Shown: positions 36,047-41,266 of the stretch, piece by piece | How positions within the stretch are numbered: the stretch's first letter is position 1 | Layout: each line of letters starts with the position of its first letter | DNA from: Candidatus Poribacteria bacterium | GTDB lineage: Bacteria; Poribacteria; WGA-4E; PCPOR2b | Reading direction: 5' to 3' | Assembly: GCA_965208675.1 (NCBI GenBank) | Contig: OZ242351.1 | Span: 928,001 to 992,000, forward strand | Length of the DNA stretch: 64,000 nucleotides | The notes under the pieces: generated by a model | Databases searched by the model: none | The model's input: only the letters and a program-made list of their open reading frames with translations | Told to the model about the DNA's origin: nothing | Translations under genes and position numbers: made by a program

Positions 36047-36418
36047 TTACTCTCTATCGTTGAATATGCGTTTGTATTCCAAACGATTTGCTCCGAAATT
36101 GATGAGAAGCCCGATTTTAAAATCGTAAGCGACGACATAGTTTTTTGCTTGTGCAATATGCACGTCCTCTAGGTGAGTCAACGCTTTTAATTCAACGACG
36201 ACTTGATTGGCGACTATAAAATCCGCTCTTCTAGTTCCAACTTCAACGCCGCGATAAAAGACTGGCTGTTCCACCTCACGACCAAAATTGATACCTGCGC
36301 TTTCAAATTCAATTGCCAGACACCTTTGATAAATCACCTCCTGAAAGCCATTTCCAAGCCTCTTATGCACTTCCATCGCGCAGCCGATGATTTGATAAGT
36401 CAAACTATCTTTTATCAT
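36047..36418 (-). CDS. GxxExxY protein (PD-(D/E)XK nuclease superfamily)
   Basis: IIGCAMEVHKRLGNGFQEVIY (GxxExxY), RADFIV, VELKA, GLLINFG. Confidence 0.93.
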   Translation of the reverse strand: MIKDSLTYQIIGCAMEVHKRLGNGFQEVIYQRCLAIEFESAGINFGREVEQPVFYRGVEVGTRRADFIVANQVVVELKALTHLEDVHIAQAKNYVVAYDFKIGLLINFGANRLEYKRIFNDRE

Positions 36419-36516
36419 ATTGAGATAATCTTTACCCGGTGTCTCTTGATTCAGACAATTTACTCTGCCGCTCCTTAAATTCACTGTAATGACAGGACAG
36501 ACAAGTCAGTCCGAAC

Positions 36517-36603: not shown

Positions 36604-37557
36604 TTATTTTTGCACTTCACGCAGCAAATTTACCCAGCTCTGGCGTTCTCGTGCGGGGTCTACAAGCGGTTTAAGCCGTTCACACCACGTCTTGACAGTA
36701 TTGTAAAACGCCGGGTCTGTCTCAATTCGCTCTAGGAGTTTCGCCAATGCGTACGTATCGCCTACCGGAAAGTAGCCCGGATAATCCTCGCCGAGTAGAC
36801 CGATTGATCCGGATATTTGCGACGAAATGACGGGCGCCGAACAGGCGATCGCCTCGCCAACCACATTCGCGCCGCCCTCCATCTGTGAAGTCAACACGAG
36901 CGCGCGGCATCGGGCTAACCGGCGAAGTGCCTTCCAGCGAGGAATTTCCCCTAACCAACGATAGCGCGGATTGGACGCTTCTTCCGCTCTTGCGGTTTTT
37001 TCCAATTCCTGGCTTAGGGCGGCGCCGATATGCACCACTTGGATTCGCGAGTCGCCGCGCAGGCAGCGGGAAGCCATCGCTGTCCTGAATGGGTCCTTCA
37101 CGGGACGCAGATGTCCAATCACTCACACCTCAAAGACATCTTTTTTTGGAGAAAAGACGCCCGTCGGTGTCTTCACAGATTGGTAAATGACGCTAGCCTT
37201 GTTTCGCAAACGCACCGGAAGTTCATCAATACCCACCGCTTGCAGCACGATGAACCGCGACGCCATCTCCAGCGATTCTTGAGCGGACGAATCGGTATGG
37301 ATATCGCTGTACAGATCTGTTCCGGTCAGCGCCAGGATGAGCGGTAGGTCGGGGTATTTTTCCCGAAAGCGTTTAATGGAAACATAACTGCGGCGTGCGT
37401 GAAGCGCGACCATCAAATCGCACCGCTCGCCGCCGTACGCTTGCTGAACCAGGACATCGTGACCCAACTCGCGCAATATGCGAGCCCAGCGCAGCGCCGT
37501 AACACGGTTTCCTTTGCGGGAGCGCGGCGGCGCCGGGGTAACCATACAAATTTTCAT
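36604..37557 (-). CDS. senB: Selenosugar synthase SenB-like glycosyltransferase with one in-frame TGA at 37123-37125 (317 codons if read through)
   Basis: ORF-track pieces 37123-37557 and 36604-37122 are contiguous and in frame. Motifs GNRVTALRWA, ALHARRS, LTGTDLY, GHLRPVKDP, SQMEGGANV, GLLGEDYPGYF; directly downstream of senA-like gene. Sec readthrough versus pseudogene is unresolved. Confidence 0.82.
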
Positions 37558-37644
37558 AGTGTTCTCTTCAGGAGTTTGAAGTGAAAACGGCGGAAATATC
37601 TCATTTTATTATGTTAGCGTCATGGCGTTAACTGTGGCTGCGCA

Positions 37645-38958
37645 TCAGTCGAGCACGCAGGTGCGAAATCCAGCCAGCACGTCCCGCCGATCCGGCGTAT
37701 AGAAATTGCGCCAGGTGTTGCGCAGCATCCGGGAACGCGTTGTCCAGCACCCGCCGCGCAGTACCTTTCGAGATTCGAACCAGGGGGCGGAATATTCCTT
37801 GTACAGGTCAACCGCAAAACCTGGATATGGGTGAAAACTGCTGCTCGTCCATTCCCACACATTGCCCATCATCTGACGGCAGCCGAAACCGCTGTCGCCC
37901 GCTGGTAATGCGTTTACACTGACACAACCCATCTGATTCCAATCCAAGTTAGCCCGCTCAGGCGTATGCGGTTCGCCGCCCCAAGGGAAGCGCCGCTTCG
38001 CTGACGAAAGCCCCTCACCGTCGAGGCGCGGTTCTGCGGAGGCAGCAACCTCCCACTCAACCTCTGTTGGGAGCCGGCGCTTCGCCCAACGGCAGTACGC
38101 CTCAACCTCATACCAGTTGACATGGATGACGGGAAGGCCGGGTTCGAGCGGCACCCATTCGTCAAAATGCCGCCGCAACCATTCGCCAGCCGTGTCACAA
38201 CGCCAATAGACGGGATGTCGTGCCGCCTCCGATTTACGCCAATCCCATCCGTCCGGACTCCAAAGGTCGCTTCGGCGGTAACCATCATCGTCCACAAATG
38301 CAGCGAATTCGGATTGGGTGACCGCGGTAGGCGCAATCGCAAATGGTTTGACCTCGACAGGATGCGCCCATTTTTCATTGTCAAACACGAATTCTTCAGC
38401 TTGAGCCGCGCCCAACAGGAAGATCCCGCCGGGAATTTCAACATCGCCGTGAAGCGTGTTGTCCTTGCAGTCTTCAGGGTGAGGGGCCATGCCAGTCGAG
38501 AACGCCGGCGGACGATAACCCAGCGTTTGCCGCGTATACGTGAACGCTTCGGTGTGCATATCTTCGTGAAAAACGGCATATCGGGTGAGATAGATTTGCT
38601 CATCACTCAATTCCCCGCTTTCAATAGTTTCGATAACCGCATCGCGGACGTTGCGCATGTACGCCAGCGTCTCTTCGCGAGTTGGAATCGACAGCGCCCA
38701 GCGTGTATCGTGTGCGATAGCTATTGAATCCCAGAGTGCGTCCGCGTCGTCCCGAATCGGTTTCTGTTTGCAAGCGTGCCGCAGCACCCATTTTTCTTGA
38801 AACCACGCCACATGCCCGATCTCCCACAACGGCGGGTTTACGATTGGTAAGTACGGTCCTATTAGCTGCTCGTCATCCAAATCGGTGACCAAATCGATCG
38901 TTCGCTGGCGTGCATCGTACACCCACTCAGCGAGCTGTGCCGTTATATCGCATTTCAT
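37645..38958 (-). CDS. senA: Selenoneine synthase SenA (EgtB/OvoA-like DinB + FGE-sulfatase-fold enzyme)
   Basis: VNPPLWEIGHVAWFQEKW, FHEDMHTEA metal His motif, FDNEKWAH, GNVWEWT, RNFYTPDRRD; paired with senB-like glycosyltransferase. Confidence 0.85.
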   Translation of the reverse strand: MKCDITAQLAEWVYDARQRTIDLVTDLDDEQLIGPYLPIVNPPLWEIGHVAWFQEKWVLRHACKQKPIRDDADALWDSIAIAHDTRWALSIPTREETLAYMRNVRDAVIETIESGELSDEQIYLTRYAVFHEDMHTEAFTYTRQTLGYRPPAFSTGMAPHPEDCKDNTLHGDVEIPGGIFLLGAAQAEEFVFDNEKWAHPVEVKPFAIAPTAVTQSEFAAFVDDDGYRRSDLWSPDGWDWRKSEAARHPVYWRCDTAGEWLRRHFDEWVPLEPGLPVIHVNWYEVEAYCRWAKRRLPTEVEWEVAASAEPRLDGEGLSSAKRRFPWGGEPHTPERANLDWNQMGCVSVNALPAGDSGFGCRQMMGNVWEWTSSSFHPYPGFAVDLYKEYSAPWFESRKVLRGGCWTTRSRMLRNTWRNFYTPDRRDVLAGFRTCVLD

Positions 38959-39169: not shown

Positions 39170-41266
39170 ATGAATGAAGGAAAACACAAACTCAGGTTAG
39201 TTGTAATGGGCGATCTTTCACATTCGCCAGAGGCATCGCCCGAATTGGATGAAGCTATCGACGACCTTAACCGGTTGCACCCAGATATCATCATGGTCAC
39301 CGGCGATTTGGACGACACCCGCCACGGTTTCGAGGCTGTCCGCCAAATGCTGCGCGCCTTCGACGGGATTGTGTTGCCCGCAATCGGCAATCATGACCTT
39401 GACTTGGAGGGTTGCGAAACAGACGAGGCAAATATTAAGTTGTTTGTTGACTCATTCCGGTTGGAAAACCACTACTATGCTTATGAACATTCAGGGTTAC
39501 GGTTCATTACGCTCAGCGCAGAACGGCATCGAAGCCTTCCCTGGCAGCCGCATGAGGTTTTTTTGAGCGGTGAACAACTCGACTGGTTTCGCCGAACGTT
39601 GGAAGCGCACCCTGCGACACCAACAATCGTACAGTGCCACGCCCCGGTATTCGGCACACATATTCCGGTCATCCCAACGGTTCACGTCCGTTCAACGAAC
39701 GCCTACATCAATCATAACCATCACCCCGAGCGGATTCTTGAACTCATCGGTCAATACCCACAGATAATCCTGTGGTTTTCCGGACACTCTCATCTCGGTC
39801 AAGGCTATCCCAATTCAATCTGTTCCCATCACGGCGTCTATTTTGTTCACGTCGGAGTCCACAGCAGCCGAGCGACACGTGATGGACGCCGACACTCTCG
39901 CGTTTTGGAAATTGAAACTGACCATATCTTGATTCGGACTTTCGATCATGCGGGTCGAGCGATTGTTCCGCGTTACGACTATGTGCTAGATGAAAGCCCT
40001 GTCGGCTTGATGTCGTGTTGGCAGGCTTATACACGGGCGAATTTTCTGTCAGGACACTTAAAGGGATTTCACGTCGGTAATGACGGTTTATCTCTAAAGC
40101 CAATGCCGACAAGCCGCTATCTGGCATATCTTGACGCACCCGCATCGCCCGGTATCCATGCAATTTGCCCCACCGAAAGAAAAATTTTCGTTGCGACGGA
40201 AGGCGGTTATGTGTGGGAATATGACCGCACCTCGGGGTTGCCGCTCGGGGCAATCTACCTGGATAAATCTCCAACGAACATCCTTGCGACCGATACACAT
40301 GTGTGGATTGGCGGCGGCGACGGGTATCTACGACGAATAGCCATTGATCGCCCTGAACGATTTTTACGAAACAATAGCACTGATGTCCATGACGGCGAAA
40401 TTCCTATCAAGGGAATAATCCGCACAATGCGAATAATAGATGGAGATCGACTGCTTGTGGGCGCGGACCGGCGGCTCTATGAGGTAAACTGTCAAACCGA
40501 GGAACTAAGGCCGAAGGCGATATTCAAAATGAACATCCACGCGCTGATGTCTGATCGAGAGCGTCTCTATGTGCTCACAGCGAACGGCAAACTTGAGGTT
40601 TTCTCCATTTCCGAGCTTCAACTGCAAAAAACACTTCAAATTCCACCGCAACTCCGCAAGTCGGGCTTCCCGTTTGGGGTTGATTTCATCCATATTTCAG
40701 AAAAACGTTGCTTTCTTGTTTCCAAGCATCATCGAACTATCCTTCAATGTAACTTGAACAATATGGAGGTTGCTGATCAGTTCCGCGTGCCGGGAAAAAT
40801 TCGAACCGCTCTGTTTGATGACCGGGAGATATACCTGTTAACCGAGACCGGACGCCTTACCTGCCTAGACGTAAAGGGAATGACAATCAAGATGCAACGA
40901 GATCTCGAGATGGAAGCCGCTTCTACCATGGCGTTAGATAACGAATTCGTTTATGTTGCAACGTGCAACCCCAATAGCGCGCGGCAGGAAGTTCAAATTA
41001 TTGAACGATCCGCGAAAATGATCGGAAATCTCGTTTATTCTGTACGCAGTGTCGAAAATATTTATCCCGAATTAGAACTGGACATGGAGTTGACGGAGGG
41101 CAATTTTTTCCATACCGACCTTCGTGCAAAAGCCGATGAAAAGTGGGTGAAAGTGACCGACGATGAATTGTTGAGCCGAGAGTTTGAAATACGTATGACA
41201 CTCGGGCGCAGCCAAGCAGAGGCACTGCCGTATATCTCACGCATGAAGTTGAAGGGAAAGGGATAA
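39170..41266 (+). CDS. Calcineurin-like metallophosphoesterase fused to a beta-propeller-like domain
   Basis: GDLSH, TGDL, GNHD, HAP, FSGHSH motifs in the first ~270 aa; C-terminal beta-rich repeats (IFVATEGGYV, VWIGGGDG, LYVLTANG, IYLLTETG). Confidence 0.78.
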   Translation: MNEGKHKLRLVVMGDLSHSPEASPELDEAIDDLNRLHPDIIMVTGDLDDTRHGFEAVRQMLRAFDGIVLPAIGNHDLDLEGCETDEANIKLFVDSFRLENHYYAYEHSGLRFITLSAERHRSLPWQPHEVFLSGEQLDWFRRTLEAHPATPTIVQCHAPVFGTHIPVIPTVHVRSTNAYINHNHHPERILELIGQYPQIILWFSGHSHLGQGYPNSICSHHGVYFVHVGVHSSRATRDGRRHSRVLEIETDHILIRTFDHAGRAIVPRYDYVLDESPVGLMSCWQAYTRANFLSGHLKGFHVGNDGLSLKPMPTSRYLAYLDAPASPGIHAICPTERKIFVATEGGYVWEYDRTSGLPLGAIYLDKSPTNILATDTHVWIGGGDGYLRRIAIDRPERFLRNNSTDVHDGEIPIKGIIRTMRIIDGDRLLVGADRRLYEVNCQTEELRPKAIFKMNIHALMSDRERLYVLTANGKLEVFSISELQLQKTLQIPPQLRKSGFPFGVDFIHISEKRCFLVSKHHRTILQCNLNNMEVADQFRVPGKIRTALFDDREIYLLTETGRLTCLDVKGMTIKMQRDLEMEAASTMALDNEFVYVATCNPNSARQEVQIIERSAKMIGNLVYSVRSVENIYPELELDMELTEGNFFHTDLRAKADEKWVKVTDDELLSREFEIRMTLGRSQAEALPYISRMKLKGKG

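Follow-up and report, generated by a model that had tools for sequence, protein, structure and literature searches.

A probable selenocysteine codon in the selenosugar synthase gene senB of a Candidatus Poribacteria bacterium

The senB gene of a sponge-associated Candidatus Poribacteria bacterium is very likely a working selenoprotein gene in which the UGA at codon 145 is decoded as selenocysteine (Sec), although there is no protein-level evidence for this. The gene is located in a stretch of 64,000 nt, here called the window, which corresponds to positions 928,001-992,000 of contig OZ242351.1 in assembly GCA_965208675.1. We observed an alternation of UGA and cysteine codons at this site among relatives, nucleotide conservation of a hairpin downstream of the UGA, a Sec machinery in the genome and an otherwise intact gene; the binding of SelB to the hairpin, the actual insertion of Sec and the inactivity of the truncated product are inferred. 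The features were located as follows.

36604..37557, minus strand: senB, selenosugar synthase gene, 317 codons plus TAA, with one in-frame TGA read through
37126..37557, minus strand: senB codons 1-144, N-terminal Rossmann domain and linker (AlphaFold2 secondary structure), the product if the UGA terminates
37123..37125, minus strand: UGA codon 145, read as selenocysteine from the column comparison and the Sec machinery of the genome
37093..37106, minus strand: candidate SECIS hairpin GUCC-CGUGAA-GGAC, from codon conservation among the TGA forms
36604..37122, minus strand: senB codons 146-317 and stop, C-terminal Rossmann domain with R151, K154 and E227 (alignment)
37645..38958, minus strand: senA, selenoneine synthase, 437 amino acids, intact, TGA stop (NF041186)

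The initial annotation had described a senA-senB pair with a single in-frame TGA in senB, and all of its coordinates were confirmed. The two open reading frame pieces of senB (37557..37123 and 37122..36604, minus strand) share one frame, and the translation around the stop reads ...KKDVFEV-TGA-VIGHLRPVKDPFR..., giving 317 residues upon read-through before a TAA codon. The read-through product scored 405.9 bits against the curated NCBIfam model for SenB, TIGR04348 (cut-off 300), with residues 3-313 matching positions 1-309 of the 310 in the model, and the Pfam domain Glycos_transf_1 was placed on residues 138-286, that is, across the TGA. No other lesion was found along the full-length read-through. 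The senA gene, located 87 nt upstream of senB on the same strand, scored 516.1 bits against NF041186 (cut-off 420), and none of the 47 SenA matches in the phylum Poribacteria contained an in-frame stop. Since TGA closes 677 of the 2005 long open frames in the genome and also ends senA, it is otherwise an ordinary stop codon. It was also noted that egtD is present about 25 kb past the end of the window and that no senC adjoins senA-senB, the only SelD above the cut-off being encoded 3.7 Mb away; the genomic association of SenB with senA and a selenophosphate synthetase was thus met by an adjacent senA and a distant selD.

The senB product could be aligned over residues 3-316 with the Variovorax SenB chains 8jjn, 8jjq and 8fbx (E = 1.3e-63). 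In this alignment, R155, K158 and E231 of the Variovorax enzyme correspond to R151, K154 and E227, and Q131, H58 and N20 to Q126, H53 and N17; roles for these residues, and for E231/E232, in Variovorax SenB are given in the accessible parts of PMC10891094 and PMC11237966. The columns of R151, K154 and E227 were kept in 149 of 150 SenB family representatives, and the EGGA(N/H)V motif is retained as E227-V232. Family membership and these residues suggest, by inference, that the enzyme would convert selenophosphate and a UDP-sugar into a selenosugar.

To place codon 145 in the phylum, we surveyed 176 Poribacteria genomes, 45 of which contained SenB at E <= 1e-60, and compared the 43 full-length genes after the exclusion of 2 partial ones. 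Column 145 was encoded by TGA in 10 genes, by a Cys codon (TGT or TGC) in 27, and by Ser and Ala codons in 3 each. The finding therefore is not unique to this assembly, and the UGA aligns with Cys in 27 of the 33 non-TGA genes, which is a criterion for selenoproteins. Cys also occupied the column in 119 of 120 near-length homologs from several phyla, so that the cysteine of the motif FEVCV.GHLR, which had been named in the initial annotation, proved to be real. The TGA-type genes were found in six genera and two families of Poribacteria, and the remainder of the gene was intact in all 10 genomes (386-416 bits). In a tree of SenB, the Sec forms were basal and paraphyletic, representing about five independent TGA lineages. 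The nearest relative, which belongs to the same genus, has TGC at column 145 and a hairpin that is still intact.

The candidate SECIS element consists of GUCC (37106-37103), the loop CGUGAA (37102-37097) and GGAC (37096-37093) on the minus strand, and spans 17-30 nt after the UGA, within the codons for R151-D155. Its loop begins at the 21st nucleotide after the UGA and has G at position 2, as had been described, and the stem is extendable to 37090-37109 if one C-C mismatch is allowed. By the bacterial SECIS criteria of bSECISearch, the apical loop lies 16-37 nt after the UGA and contains a G near its start; the model is said to go back to Zhang and Gladyshev in 2005. The senB hairpin meets both the loop distance and the early loop G.

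The main support for the hairpin came from its nucleotide sequence in relatives. All 10 TGA forms retained codons 151-155, CGU-CCC-GUG-AAG-GAY, with the same loop geometry, as against only 7 of the 33 non-TGA forms that had this string. The codon diversity of this window of 5 codons was 0.04 among the TGA forms, the lowest in the gene (mean 0.658), as compared to 0.442 among the non-TGA forms, and the flanking codons were freely variable. Judged from this codon conservation alone, the criterion for selection at the RNA level is met, with the reservation that the TGA forms are kin, about five independent lineages, which reduces the weight of the count of 10. Compensatory covariation, which had been proposed as a check, was not found among the 10 TGA forms: the pairs were invariant except for a single C-to-U variant that turns a G-C into a G-U pair. 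Among the 33 non-TGA forms, 22 are likewise able to form the stem, since most of its bases are dictated by the encoded amino acids RPVKD.

Nor was the 4-bp hairpin unusually stable in folds of 24, 48 and 63 nt. The energy was -5.4 kcal/mol over 24 nt (z = -1.59; 15 of 200 shuffles were as stable), z rose to +0.76 in the 48-nt and -0.08 in the 63-nt context, and the minimum-energy fold took other pairings in the longer contexts. No longer shared or lower stem was detected, as RNAalifold over the 10 TGA forms gave the 4-bp hairpin only. As the energy is not significant, the SECIS call rests on the comparison with relatives. An alternative upstream hairpin, GGAC...GUCC, was rejected since it is broken in 3 genomes (G001, G004 and G009).

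All four components of the Sec machinery named in the initial annotation were identified above their cut-offs: selA (595.6 bits), selB (367.5) and the tRNA-Sec gene selC (77.5), which cluster at C1:2131409-2134883, and selD. The selD gene itself contains an in-frame TGA (...VKCAG-TGA-ASK...), with a short hairpin that begins about 12 nt downstream. Three more TGA-interrupted genes with a Pfam domain across the TGA were noted, encoding an AhpC/TSA protein, a thioredoxin-like protein and a ThiF protein with rhodanese; these were chosen by eye from motifs and confirmed with Pfam, and do not represent a full selenoproteome. Their hairpins have stems of 6-8 bp and 6-nt loops that start 23-25 nt after the UGA, and two of the three loops begin with CG like that of senB (CGGGAU and CGUGCU). 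A codon-usage score for finding selenoproteins was discarded as noisy, with senB and selD absent from its top 200. SelA was found in 163 of the 176 Poribacteria genomes, and its near universal presence did not separate TGA-type from Cys-type genomes; no match was obtained in the TGA-type genome G009 (730 contigs, 90% complete). There was also no clear difference in the proximity of SelD or SenC, located within 3 kb of senB at 3 of 10 TGA-type loci and 9 of 70 other loci.

The reading of codon 145 as a Cys-to-Sec swap, put forward in the initial annotation, is thus supported by the alternation, the Sec machinery and the conserved hairpin. In the proposed mechanism, SelB with Sec-tRNA(Sec) would be recruited at UGA145 by the hairpin, Sec would be inserted, and translation would continue to the 317-residue glycosyltransferase. 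Without Sec-tRNA(Sec), a release factor would terminate the chain at residue 144, and the resulting fragment, which lacks the C-terminal domain, must by inference be inactive. If so, SenB, which diverts selenophosphate to selenoneine, would be made only when selenophosphate suffices for charging tRNA(Sec), and the enzyme that builds selenoneine would itself need selenium to be made. It is in this sense that the gene had been called selenium-gated: gating follows from Sec decoding, since the product would otherwise stop at 144, but gating as a target of selection has not been shown.

Two other accounts of the stop were weighed against Sec decoding. A nonsense mutation or an assembly error in a pseudogene would require only one TGY-to-TGA change, and the nearest relative does have TGC. 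However, the same codon recurs, in an otherwise intact gene, in 10 genomes that represent six genera, and a contig of 44,222 nt from an independent study, 96% identical and spanning the whole of senB, carries the stop as well; a protein of 144 amino acids ending in ...FEV (P0129) is recorded from a contig of 44,222 nt, matching that stop. In the protein collection, 24 of 27 N-terminal SenB pieces, each a protein cluster, end exactly at residue 144. A true SenB pseudogene, in genome G417, has 7 stops of three kinds, and SenA is never interrupted. The criteria for a pseudogene, which we also applied to senB, were not met, given the single TGA, the full-length HMM match and the conservation of the lesion. 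Four sequencing runs were compared as contigs rather than per read, and no difference at the TGA was present among the differences listed, which is weak evidence by itself, as 35 further differences were not included. As far as sequence data allow, this account is refuted, and we give it almost no credence. In a separate observation, an RNA-library contig of 243 nt (X20) covers 37082-37316, which indicates presence in an RNA library and not expression.

It could also be that senB is a split gene, in which termination at UGA145 is followed by re-initiation at the GUG next to it, and the two halves assemble into an active glycosyltransferase. Such a restart is conceivable in this genome because GAGG lies 5 nt before the GUG that directly follows the TGA, and gene callers do enter the two halves as separate proteins. 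Yet the codon after the TGA is GUA or GUC, neither of which is a start, in 4 of the 10 TGA forms, where the GAGG is also missing. The C-terminal pieces in the protein collection begin at residue 146, 147, 150, 153 or 161, depending on which start codon comes first, and a split gene would leave both the conserved hairpin 17-30 nt downstream and the alternation of Cys codon and stop unexplained. We therefore regard it as highly improbable, if slightly less so than a pseudogene, and retain Sec decoding.

Single in-frame TGAs, which are putative Sec codons, were also found at other SenB columns in other phyla. Column 130 was TGA in 8 of 29 Latescibacterota genes, and column 220 in 14 of 16 fetched genes with a single TGA from a Blastocatellia-class sample, each of the two columns having a separate hairpin. 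The column-220 hairpin, CGCCUGGARGGCG, was present in 14 of 14 TGA forms and about 1 of 20 non-TGA forms, and the column-130 stem showed one compensatory variant. TGA was further seen at columns 66/67 (2 genes), 165 (1 gene), 5 (1 gene) and 171 (1 DNA locus), and among 31 protein clusters of exactly 170 amino acids, all 7 that were inspected end at the column-171 stop. We consider columns 130, 145 and 220 to be well supported, and columns 5, 66/67, 165 and 171, with one or two sequences each, to be candidates. Non-Sec relatives had Cys at column 220 in 13 of 20 cases, and at column 130 in 1 of 20 cases and at two metagenome loci. Cys145 was kept in all 14 column-220 TGA forms. Columns 66/67, 130 and 165 are variable across the family, and all TGA sites precede the EGGAN sugar-binding motif at 227-231.

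In the AlphaFold2 secondary structure, residue 145 falls midway along beta-strand 1 of the C-terminal Rossmann domain, six residues before R151, which binds selenophosphate and UDP-phosphate, and nine before the catalytic K154. Variovorax SenB has Val149 at this column, and the 150 family representatives were mixed (C 74, A 22, L 19, V 16, S 8, T 5); neither Cys nor Sec is therefore needed for catalysis. No Cys column that could provide a partner co-occurred with Cys145 (highest phi 0.18), and the MI-APC partners of column 145 were weak, the top one being column 217 at 0.10. The secondary structure placed strands at 142-147 and 219-222, and the covariation pair 143-218 was within the top ten of the alignment. 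From these strand ends and the one pair, columns 145 and 220 probably lie side by side in adjoining strands.

Given Sec decoding, the question is why the codon is kept, and two explanations share the same decoding. One is that Sec145 performs selenol chemistry at a subfamily-specific site, otherwise occupied by Cys145, at the base of the loop that binds phosphate and selenophosphate, and that it is retained for being better than Cys at the task, be it redox-sensitive switching, the transient carriage of the reactive selenosugar or selenophosphate through an Se-Se or Se-S bond, or protection against over-oxidation. The other is that the UGA is kept as a checkpoint on selenium supply rather than for what the residue does chemically: the UGA and its hairpin, placed before essential C-terminal motifs, would tie SenB synthesis to charged tRNA(Sec), and selenoneine synthesis would draw on selenophosphate only after selenoprotein synthesis has been served. 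The classical alternation of Sec and Cys, with Cys in nearly all near homologs of several phyla, speaks for chemistry and against a mere checkpoint, as Cys in the non-Sec relatives classically marks a residue as chalcogen-dependent and predominates at two of the three well-supported sites (145 and 220, more thinly at 130). The position points the same way: the G148-H149 turn follows 3 residues after the site and runs on to R151 and K154, and the strand register puts 145 next to 220, so that Sec/Cys220 would sit beside the Cys145 of the Blastocatellia-class genes and the two columns may mark one functional site.

Against chemistry stand the active Variovorax enzyme with Val, the A, L, V, S or T in half of the wider family, the lack of a co-occurring Cys, and a position that looks buried in a beta-strand, as judged from secondary structure only and without distances. 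The structural papers are also silent on the residue in the parts that were available, with no V149 or Val149 in PMC11237966 and no mention of it in PMC10891094. The dispensability of the residue for catalysis instead favours a checkpoint, as do the lineage-dependent columns of the single TGAs, the separate hairpins at columns 130 and 220, the variability of columns 66/67, 130 and 165, the location of every TGA before EGGAN and the absence of stops from SenA, with the limitation that the minor sites are based on one or two sequences. We tentatively consider selenol chemistry a plausible explanation that falls short of an even chance, and a checkpoint a possible but rather doubtful one. Likewise, it is only a speculative suggestion that the Sec codon arose independently at at least three positions in SenB and that the UGA itself was selected as a translational checkpoint. 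If true, the checkpoint would provide the cell with an inherent rule on whether selenoproteins or selenometabolites are served first, and would amount to a previously undescribed regulatory role of Sec recoding. No experimentally documented case of a Sec codon retained as a gate in bacteria is known to us, nor did one emerge from the literature, which was not searched specifically for this.

Selenoneine biosynthesis was reportedly discovered in 2022, and SenB is, to our knowledge, the only known Se-glycosyltransferase. Should SenB prove to be a selenoprotein in Poribacteria, Latescibacterota and Acidobacteriota, its genes are being cut in two systematically by gene callers; dozens of SenB halves are present in the protein collection as "hypothetical" or "glycosyltransferase", and the capacity for selenoneine would therefore be undercounted in surveys of sponge symbionts and soil. 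A selenometabolite pathway would be directly coupled to Sec decoding, offering a testable model for the ranking of scarce selenium uses. SenB would furthermore be a rare family with lineage-dependent Sec positions, some of them not conserved, and well suited for asking whether Sec is always retained for catalysis. The accessible parts of the papers searched handle SenB as an ordinary protein, and a Sec-containing SenB was not mentioned in those of PMC10891094, PMC11237966, PMC10702425, PMC5322559 and the preprint 10.1101/2022.04.13.486033, nor in the partly available literature on SenB, selenoneine, TIGR04348 and Poribacteria selenocysteine, with supplementary tables of surveys outside the scope. 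The available text of the 2026 review of prokaryotic selenoproteomes (PMC13188914) did not list SenB and contained no mention of selenosugar, glycosyl, PF00534 or PF13692.

Among known systems, the closest is SenB of Variovorax paradoxus (available parts of PMC10891094, PMC11237966, PMC10702425 and the preprint 10.1101/2022.04.13.486033; Kayrouz et al. 2022). It shares the family TIGR04348, the GT-B fold, the key residues and a location beside senA, but has Val149 where the senB gene studied here has UGA and near relatives have Cys, and its cluster includes a selD paralog of its own, senC, which is missing from the senA-senB locus in the window. Sec-type SelD, which the genome itself encodes with a TGA, is likewise an enzyme of the selenium pathway that is a selenoprotein. 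In SelD, the Sec or Cys residue is part of the catalytic N-terminal loop and is not known to occupy more than one position. In SenB, by contrast, catalysis does not depend on the residue, and Sec is placed differently in different phyla. The hairpin resembles SECIS elements of the fdhF type in its location within the coding region just after the UGA, its conserved loop nucleotides and the early G-U of the loop, but the TGA forms have no more than 4 bp of stem in common (-5.4 kcal/mol) and share no lower stem. Selenoproteins of the MoeB/ThiF and Prx types, which are listed in the available text of PMC13188914, are also TGA-interrupted in this genome, and the resemblance of their loops (CGUGCU and CGGGAU) to CGUGAA suggests that one SelB recognises all of them. 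Unlike SenB, however, these proteins have one fixed Sec position.

In the window, senA and senB are both encoded on the minus strand, and the coordinates that the initial annotation had assigned to both genes, to the TGA and to the hairpin were found to be correct when the ORFs and their translations were checked:

38958..37645, minus strand: senA, selenoneine synthase (NF041186, 516.1 bits, cut-off 420), 87 nt upstream of senB
37557..37123, minus strand: N-terminal ORF of senB, 144 codons, then TGA
37125..37123, minus strand: in-frame TGA of senB, separating the two ORFs
37122..36604, minus strand: C-terminal ORF of senB, 172 codons, in the same frame as the N-terminal ORF
37106..37093, minus strand: hairpin GUCC-CGUGAA-GGAC, with the loop starting 21 nt after the UGA

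The read-through senB product of 317 residues aligned end to end with NCBIfam TIGR04348 ("selenoneine biosynthesis selenosugar synthase SenB") at 405.9 bits (cut-off 300), and the Pfam domain Glycos_transf_1 ran across the TGA. Directly 3' of senB on the same strand was a gene for a GxxExxY / PD-(D/E)XK_3 family protein (36047-36484; TIGR04256, 138.7 bits), while the gene divergent from senA (39170-41266, plus strand) encoded a protein of 698 aa, in which a calcineurin-like metallophosphoesterase domain at the N-terminus was accompanied by a weak match to a beta-propeller. The genome consists of a single contig of 4.89 Mb (C1), in which a SenB search identified no second, Cys-type SenB. The gene for EgtD (hercynine synthase; TIGR03438, 351.9 bits) was located at C1:1017222-1018130 on the minus strand, about 25 kb past the window end and thus not clustered with senA-senB. 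With EgtD present, the SenA substrate hercynine can be made, and the selenoneine pathway is complete.

A SenB model search with a threshold of E <= 1e-60 gave matches in 45 of 176 Candidatus Poribacteria genomes, 10 of which contained exactly one in-frame TGA in the gene. A codon alignment of the 43 full-length senB genes, from which the partial genes in G058 and G065 were left out, contained TGA in 10, TGT in 15, TGC in 12, Ser codons in 3 (TCA, AGC, AGT) and Ala codons in 3 sequences at column 145, as numbered in the window SenB. The initial annotation had taken the UGA for a candidate selenocysteine (Sec) codon followed by a SECIS hairpin, or for a selenium-gated switch; consistent with a Sec codon, the TGA was not unique to this assembly and alternated with Cys codons (10 versus 27 genes). 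The TGA forms were found in G000, G001 and G003 of the window's genus and in G004, G008, G009, G021, G027, G030 and G069, representing six genera and two families. The nearest relative, G002, which belongs to the same genus and is 90% identical, had TGC. We also noted that senA and senB are adjacent in the window's genus, whereas they are hundreds of kilobases apart in genus g5 (in G021 of that genus, senB at C1:3519817-3520749 and senA at C1:3302573-3303859 of its own assembly), and that the gene order in G069 was senA, a selD paralog (45% identical to the SelD of the window's genome) and senB.

In a collection of 5.8 billion proteins, the 120 best homologs of near full length had Cys (119) or Ser (1) at column 145, in line with the Cys that the initial annotation had proposed for related SenB proteins. 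This set cannot include TGA forms because gene callers split such genes. The 120 short proteins listed (the best 120 of 996 matches) included 27 N-terminal SenB pieces, 24 of which ended exactly at residue 144, and 53 C-terminal pieces, which started at the first usable start codon past the TGA (residue 146, 147, 150, 153, 161 etc.). Two such halves from Candidatus Poribacteria bacterium are named "hypothetical protein" and "glycosyltransferase" in GenBank, so the selenoprotein has not been recognised by annotation. The public runs that contained the stretch were sponge metagenomes. A 44,222-nt contig from a second study covered the whole senB gene at about 96% identity, and a 144-aa protein ending in ...FEV (P0129) is recorded with a source contig of this same length (44,222 nt). 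Within the limits of sequence data, the recurrence of the TGA in relatives and in the second study rules out both an error of assembly and a nonsense mutation private to this genome.

The selA, selB, selC and selD genes, the absence of which would have spoken against Sec, were all found in the genome: selA, selB and the tRNA-Sec gene (selC) were clustered at C1:2131409-2134883 (595.6, 367.5 and 77.5 bits, respectively), and selD (375.8 bits) contained an in-frame TGA of its own (...VKCAG-TGA-ASK...). Across the phylum, SelA was identified in 163 of 176 genomes and in all but one of the 10 TGA-type genomes, the exception being G009, an assembly of 730 contigs. TGA otherwise serves as a normal stop codon, closing senA as well as 677 of the 2,005 open frames of at least 300 codons in the genome. 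A rough scan of the genome for TGA-interrupted genes yielded three, besides senB and selD, in which a Pfam domain extends across the TGA; given how rough it was, further such genes are probable. The four genes other than senB are located outside the window:

C1:1464612-1465073, minus strand: AhpC/TSA peroxiredoxin, Sec context ...FTSG-U-TAEVC...
C1:4067625-4068524, plus strand: thioredoxin-like TPR protein, Sec context ...W-U-GSC...
C1:1803270-1804466, minus strand: rhodanese-ThiF/MoeB protein, TGA within the domain
C1:4649539-4650462, minus strand: SelD, TGA likewise within the domain

MoeB (PF00899) is listed as a selenoprotein in a review (PMC13188914). Each of the four genes had a hairpin 12-25 nt past the UGA, and in the first three the stems were 6-8 bp and the 6-nt loops (CGGGAU, CCACUA and CGUGCU) started 23-25 nt after it. 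The senB loop, CGUGAA, starting 21 nt after the UGA, fits these loops, although its stem is shorter.

Codons 151-155, which form the senB hairpin, were CGU-CCC-GUG-AAG-GAY in all 10 TGA forms, with the lone GAU variant retaining a G-U pair, and the flanking codons on both sides were freely variable. The pairwise codon difference was 0.04 in this segment against a gene mean of 0.658, making it the least variable 5-codon window of the gene, whereas the values for the 33 non-TGA forms were 0.442 and 0.615. Conservation exceeded what the protein requires at the Arg codon CGU, at the third base of each of the codons CCC and GUG, both of which are loop positions, and at AAG. The exact hairpin string was present in 10/10 TGA forms versus 7/33 non-TGA forms, namely G002, G006 (whose TCA at column 145 is a single change away from TGA) and five genomes of genus g5, the basal member of which, G021, has TGA. 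To judge from the sequences, these seven strings look like remnants after recent Sec loss. The stem is only four pairs long, and it was possible in 22 of the 33 non-TGA forms, as allowed by the amino acids RPVKD alone. At -5.4 kcal/mol (z = -1.59, and close to 0 when longer contexts were folded), the fold had no significant stability, and neither a compensatory change in the stem nor a longer common stem was found among the 10 TGA forms, which because of kinship stand for about five lineages. Thus, the SECIS hairpin originally proposed is supported by its position, loop distance and nucleotide conservation (10/10), but not by compensatory change or unusual stability.

SenB loci were fetched from named genomes of many phyla for 80 of the 588 relatives found, and 10 of the 80 contained one in-frame TGA, which was at column 145 in only one of them, a Poribacteria genome. 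A search of 168 Latescibacterota genomes identified SenB in 31, of which 9 contained one TGA (loci L144-L152). In the 29 full-length genes aligned, the TGA was at column 130, in the interdomain linker (...QSFT-U-PPG...), in 8 (for example L144, codon 130), and at column 165 in one, L151. Column 130 was Cys in one of the non-TGA Latescibacterota relatives and P, A or V in the others, and was also Cys in two metagenome loci. UGA130 was followed by a hairpin, CCCCC-AGGN-GGGGG, with one compensatory variant, CUCCUC/GAGGAG. In an even sample of 401 genomes of the Blastocatellia class (that of G177), 91 contained SenB and 17 full-length senB genes had exactly one TGA, 16 of which were examined at locus level (L173-L188); the seventeenth, from a genome flagged unpublished, was left out. 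The TGA was at column 220 in 14 of these (...S[QD]L-U-V[LH]SSRLEGGA...) and at columns 66/67 in 2 divergent genes (L186, L187), and column 220 was Cys in 13 of 20 non-TGA relatives. About 12 nt after UGA220 came the hairpin (U)CCCGCC-UGGAR-GGCGGG(G), built on the codons of SSRLEGG, the core of which, CGCCUGGARGGCG, was present in 14/14 UGA220 forms versus about 1/20 non-TGA relatives. When 171 distinct SenB sequences were combined in one tree, the site-145, site-130 and site-220 forms fell into separate lineages.

Of five other-column TGA genomes examined for tRNA-Sec, four gave a clear match and one, the fragmented assembly G177, a borderline match, and SelA was found in all five Blastocatellia-class genomes checked. 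In contrast to the single-TGA genes, a true SenB pseudogene from the Blastocatellia-class sample (G417:C21:2350-3267) contained 7 stops of three kinds (1 TGA, 2 TAG and 4 TAA). The 120 short proteins listed (of 996) also included 31 clusters of SenB N-terminal pieces, each exactly 170 aa long (P0155-P0240); all 7 pieces inspected, one of them from an Acidobacteria genome, ended in ...LLP[GE]SS. In L209, the one DNA locus retrieved for this group, codon 171 was TGA in place of the Arg of other SenBs, with an open frame beyond it; no clear hairpin was seen after this TGA in the single sequence. A lone TGA at senB codon 5 (MKIL-TGA-ITP) in Candidatus Entotheonella sp. TSY1 (L081), a single case, might reflect an error, pseudogene formation or Sec, and was given no weight.

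The window SenB could be aligned with the Variovorax paradoxus SenB structures 8jjn, 8jjq and 8fbx (E = 1.3e-63), in which Val149 occupies the place of UGA145, and R155 and K158 correspond to R151 and K154. For the Variovorax enzyme, the two structural papers place R155 in the selenophosphate pocket, in contact with the phosphates of UDP, and propose that K158 catalyses Se-P cleavage (PMC10891094, PMC11237966). In an AlphaFold2 model (pLDDT 89.2), residue 145 was mid-strand in 142-147, the first strand of the C-terminal Rossmann domain. Column 145 was C in 74, A in 22, L in 19, V in 16, S in 8 and T in 5 of 150 wider-family cluster representatives (41-63% identical), whereas R151, K154 and E227 were conserved in 149 of the 150. 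Cys or Sec at 145 therefore marks one large SenB subfamily, and glycosyl transfer does not require it. A co-occurrence test of Cys columns found none that accompanied Cys145.

We consider it very likely that UGA145 is decoded as Sec via SelB and the hairpin, and that translation stops after residue 144 when charged tRNA(Sec) is lacking. As in standard bacterial decoding, the hairpin would recruit SelB with Sec-tRNA(Sec) to a ribosome at UGA145, which would then insert Sec; if charged tRNA(Sec) were absent, the product would lack R151, K154 and the EGGAN motif. Full-length SenB would then be made only if selenophosphate suffices to charge tRNA(Sec), a dependence that follows from Sec decoding with no further assumption.

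Why Sec has been kept is less certain. One explanation, which we favor only tentatively and hold at somewhat below even chances, is selenol chemistry at the Cys145 site: the subfamily retains Cys145 almost without exception, and Cys is mostly the alternative residue at all three good sites. Furthermore, columns 145 and 220 are probably adjacent on neighbouring parallel strands (142-147 and 219-222 in the AlphaFold2 model), with the strand register 145-220 given by the covariation pair 143-218, among the ten strongest in an alignment of 413 SenB sequences; Sec220 of the Blastocatellia-class genes would then neighbour Cys145. That the UGA has instead been kept as a selected selenium gate is possible, but we regard it as rather unlikely. 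It would fit with the residue being dispensable in the characterised enzyme, with UGA sites that differ between phyla, fall at variable positions in the cases of 66/67, 130 and 165, and are all upstream of essential C-terminal motifs, and with SenA never being interrupted (no in-frame stop in 47 SenA matches from the same Poribacteria genomes). The two explanations are not mutually exclusive, and what weight remains goes to both acting together or to near-neutral retention.

By sequence analysis, the window senB gene is a SenB family member that satisfies the customary computational tests of a bacterial selenoprotein gene; only covariation in the SECIS, or unusual stability of it, is missing. 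No report of a Sec-containing SenB was found in the literature searched, which did not cover supplementary tables that could list one, and the available text of the 2026 review of prokaryotic selenoproteomes (PMC13188914) makes no mention of SenB, selenosugar, glycosyl, PF00534 or PF13692. We class SenB as a new selenoprotein family with two unusual features: it is part of a selenometabolite pathway, and the position of Sec varies between lineages.
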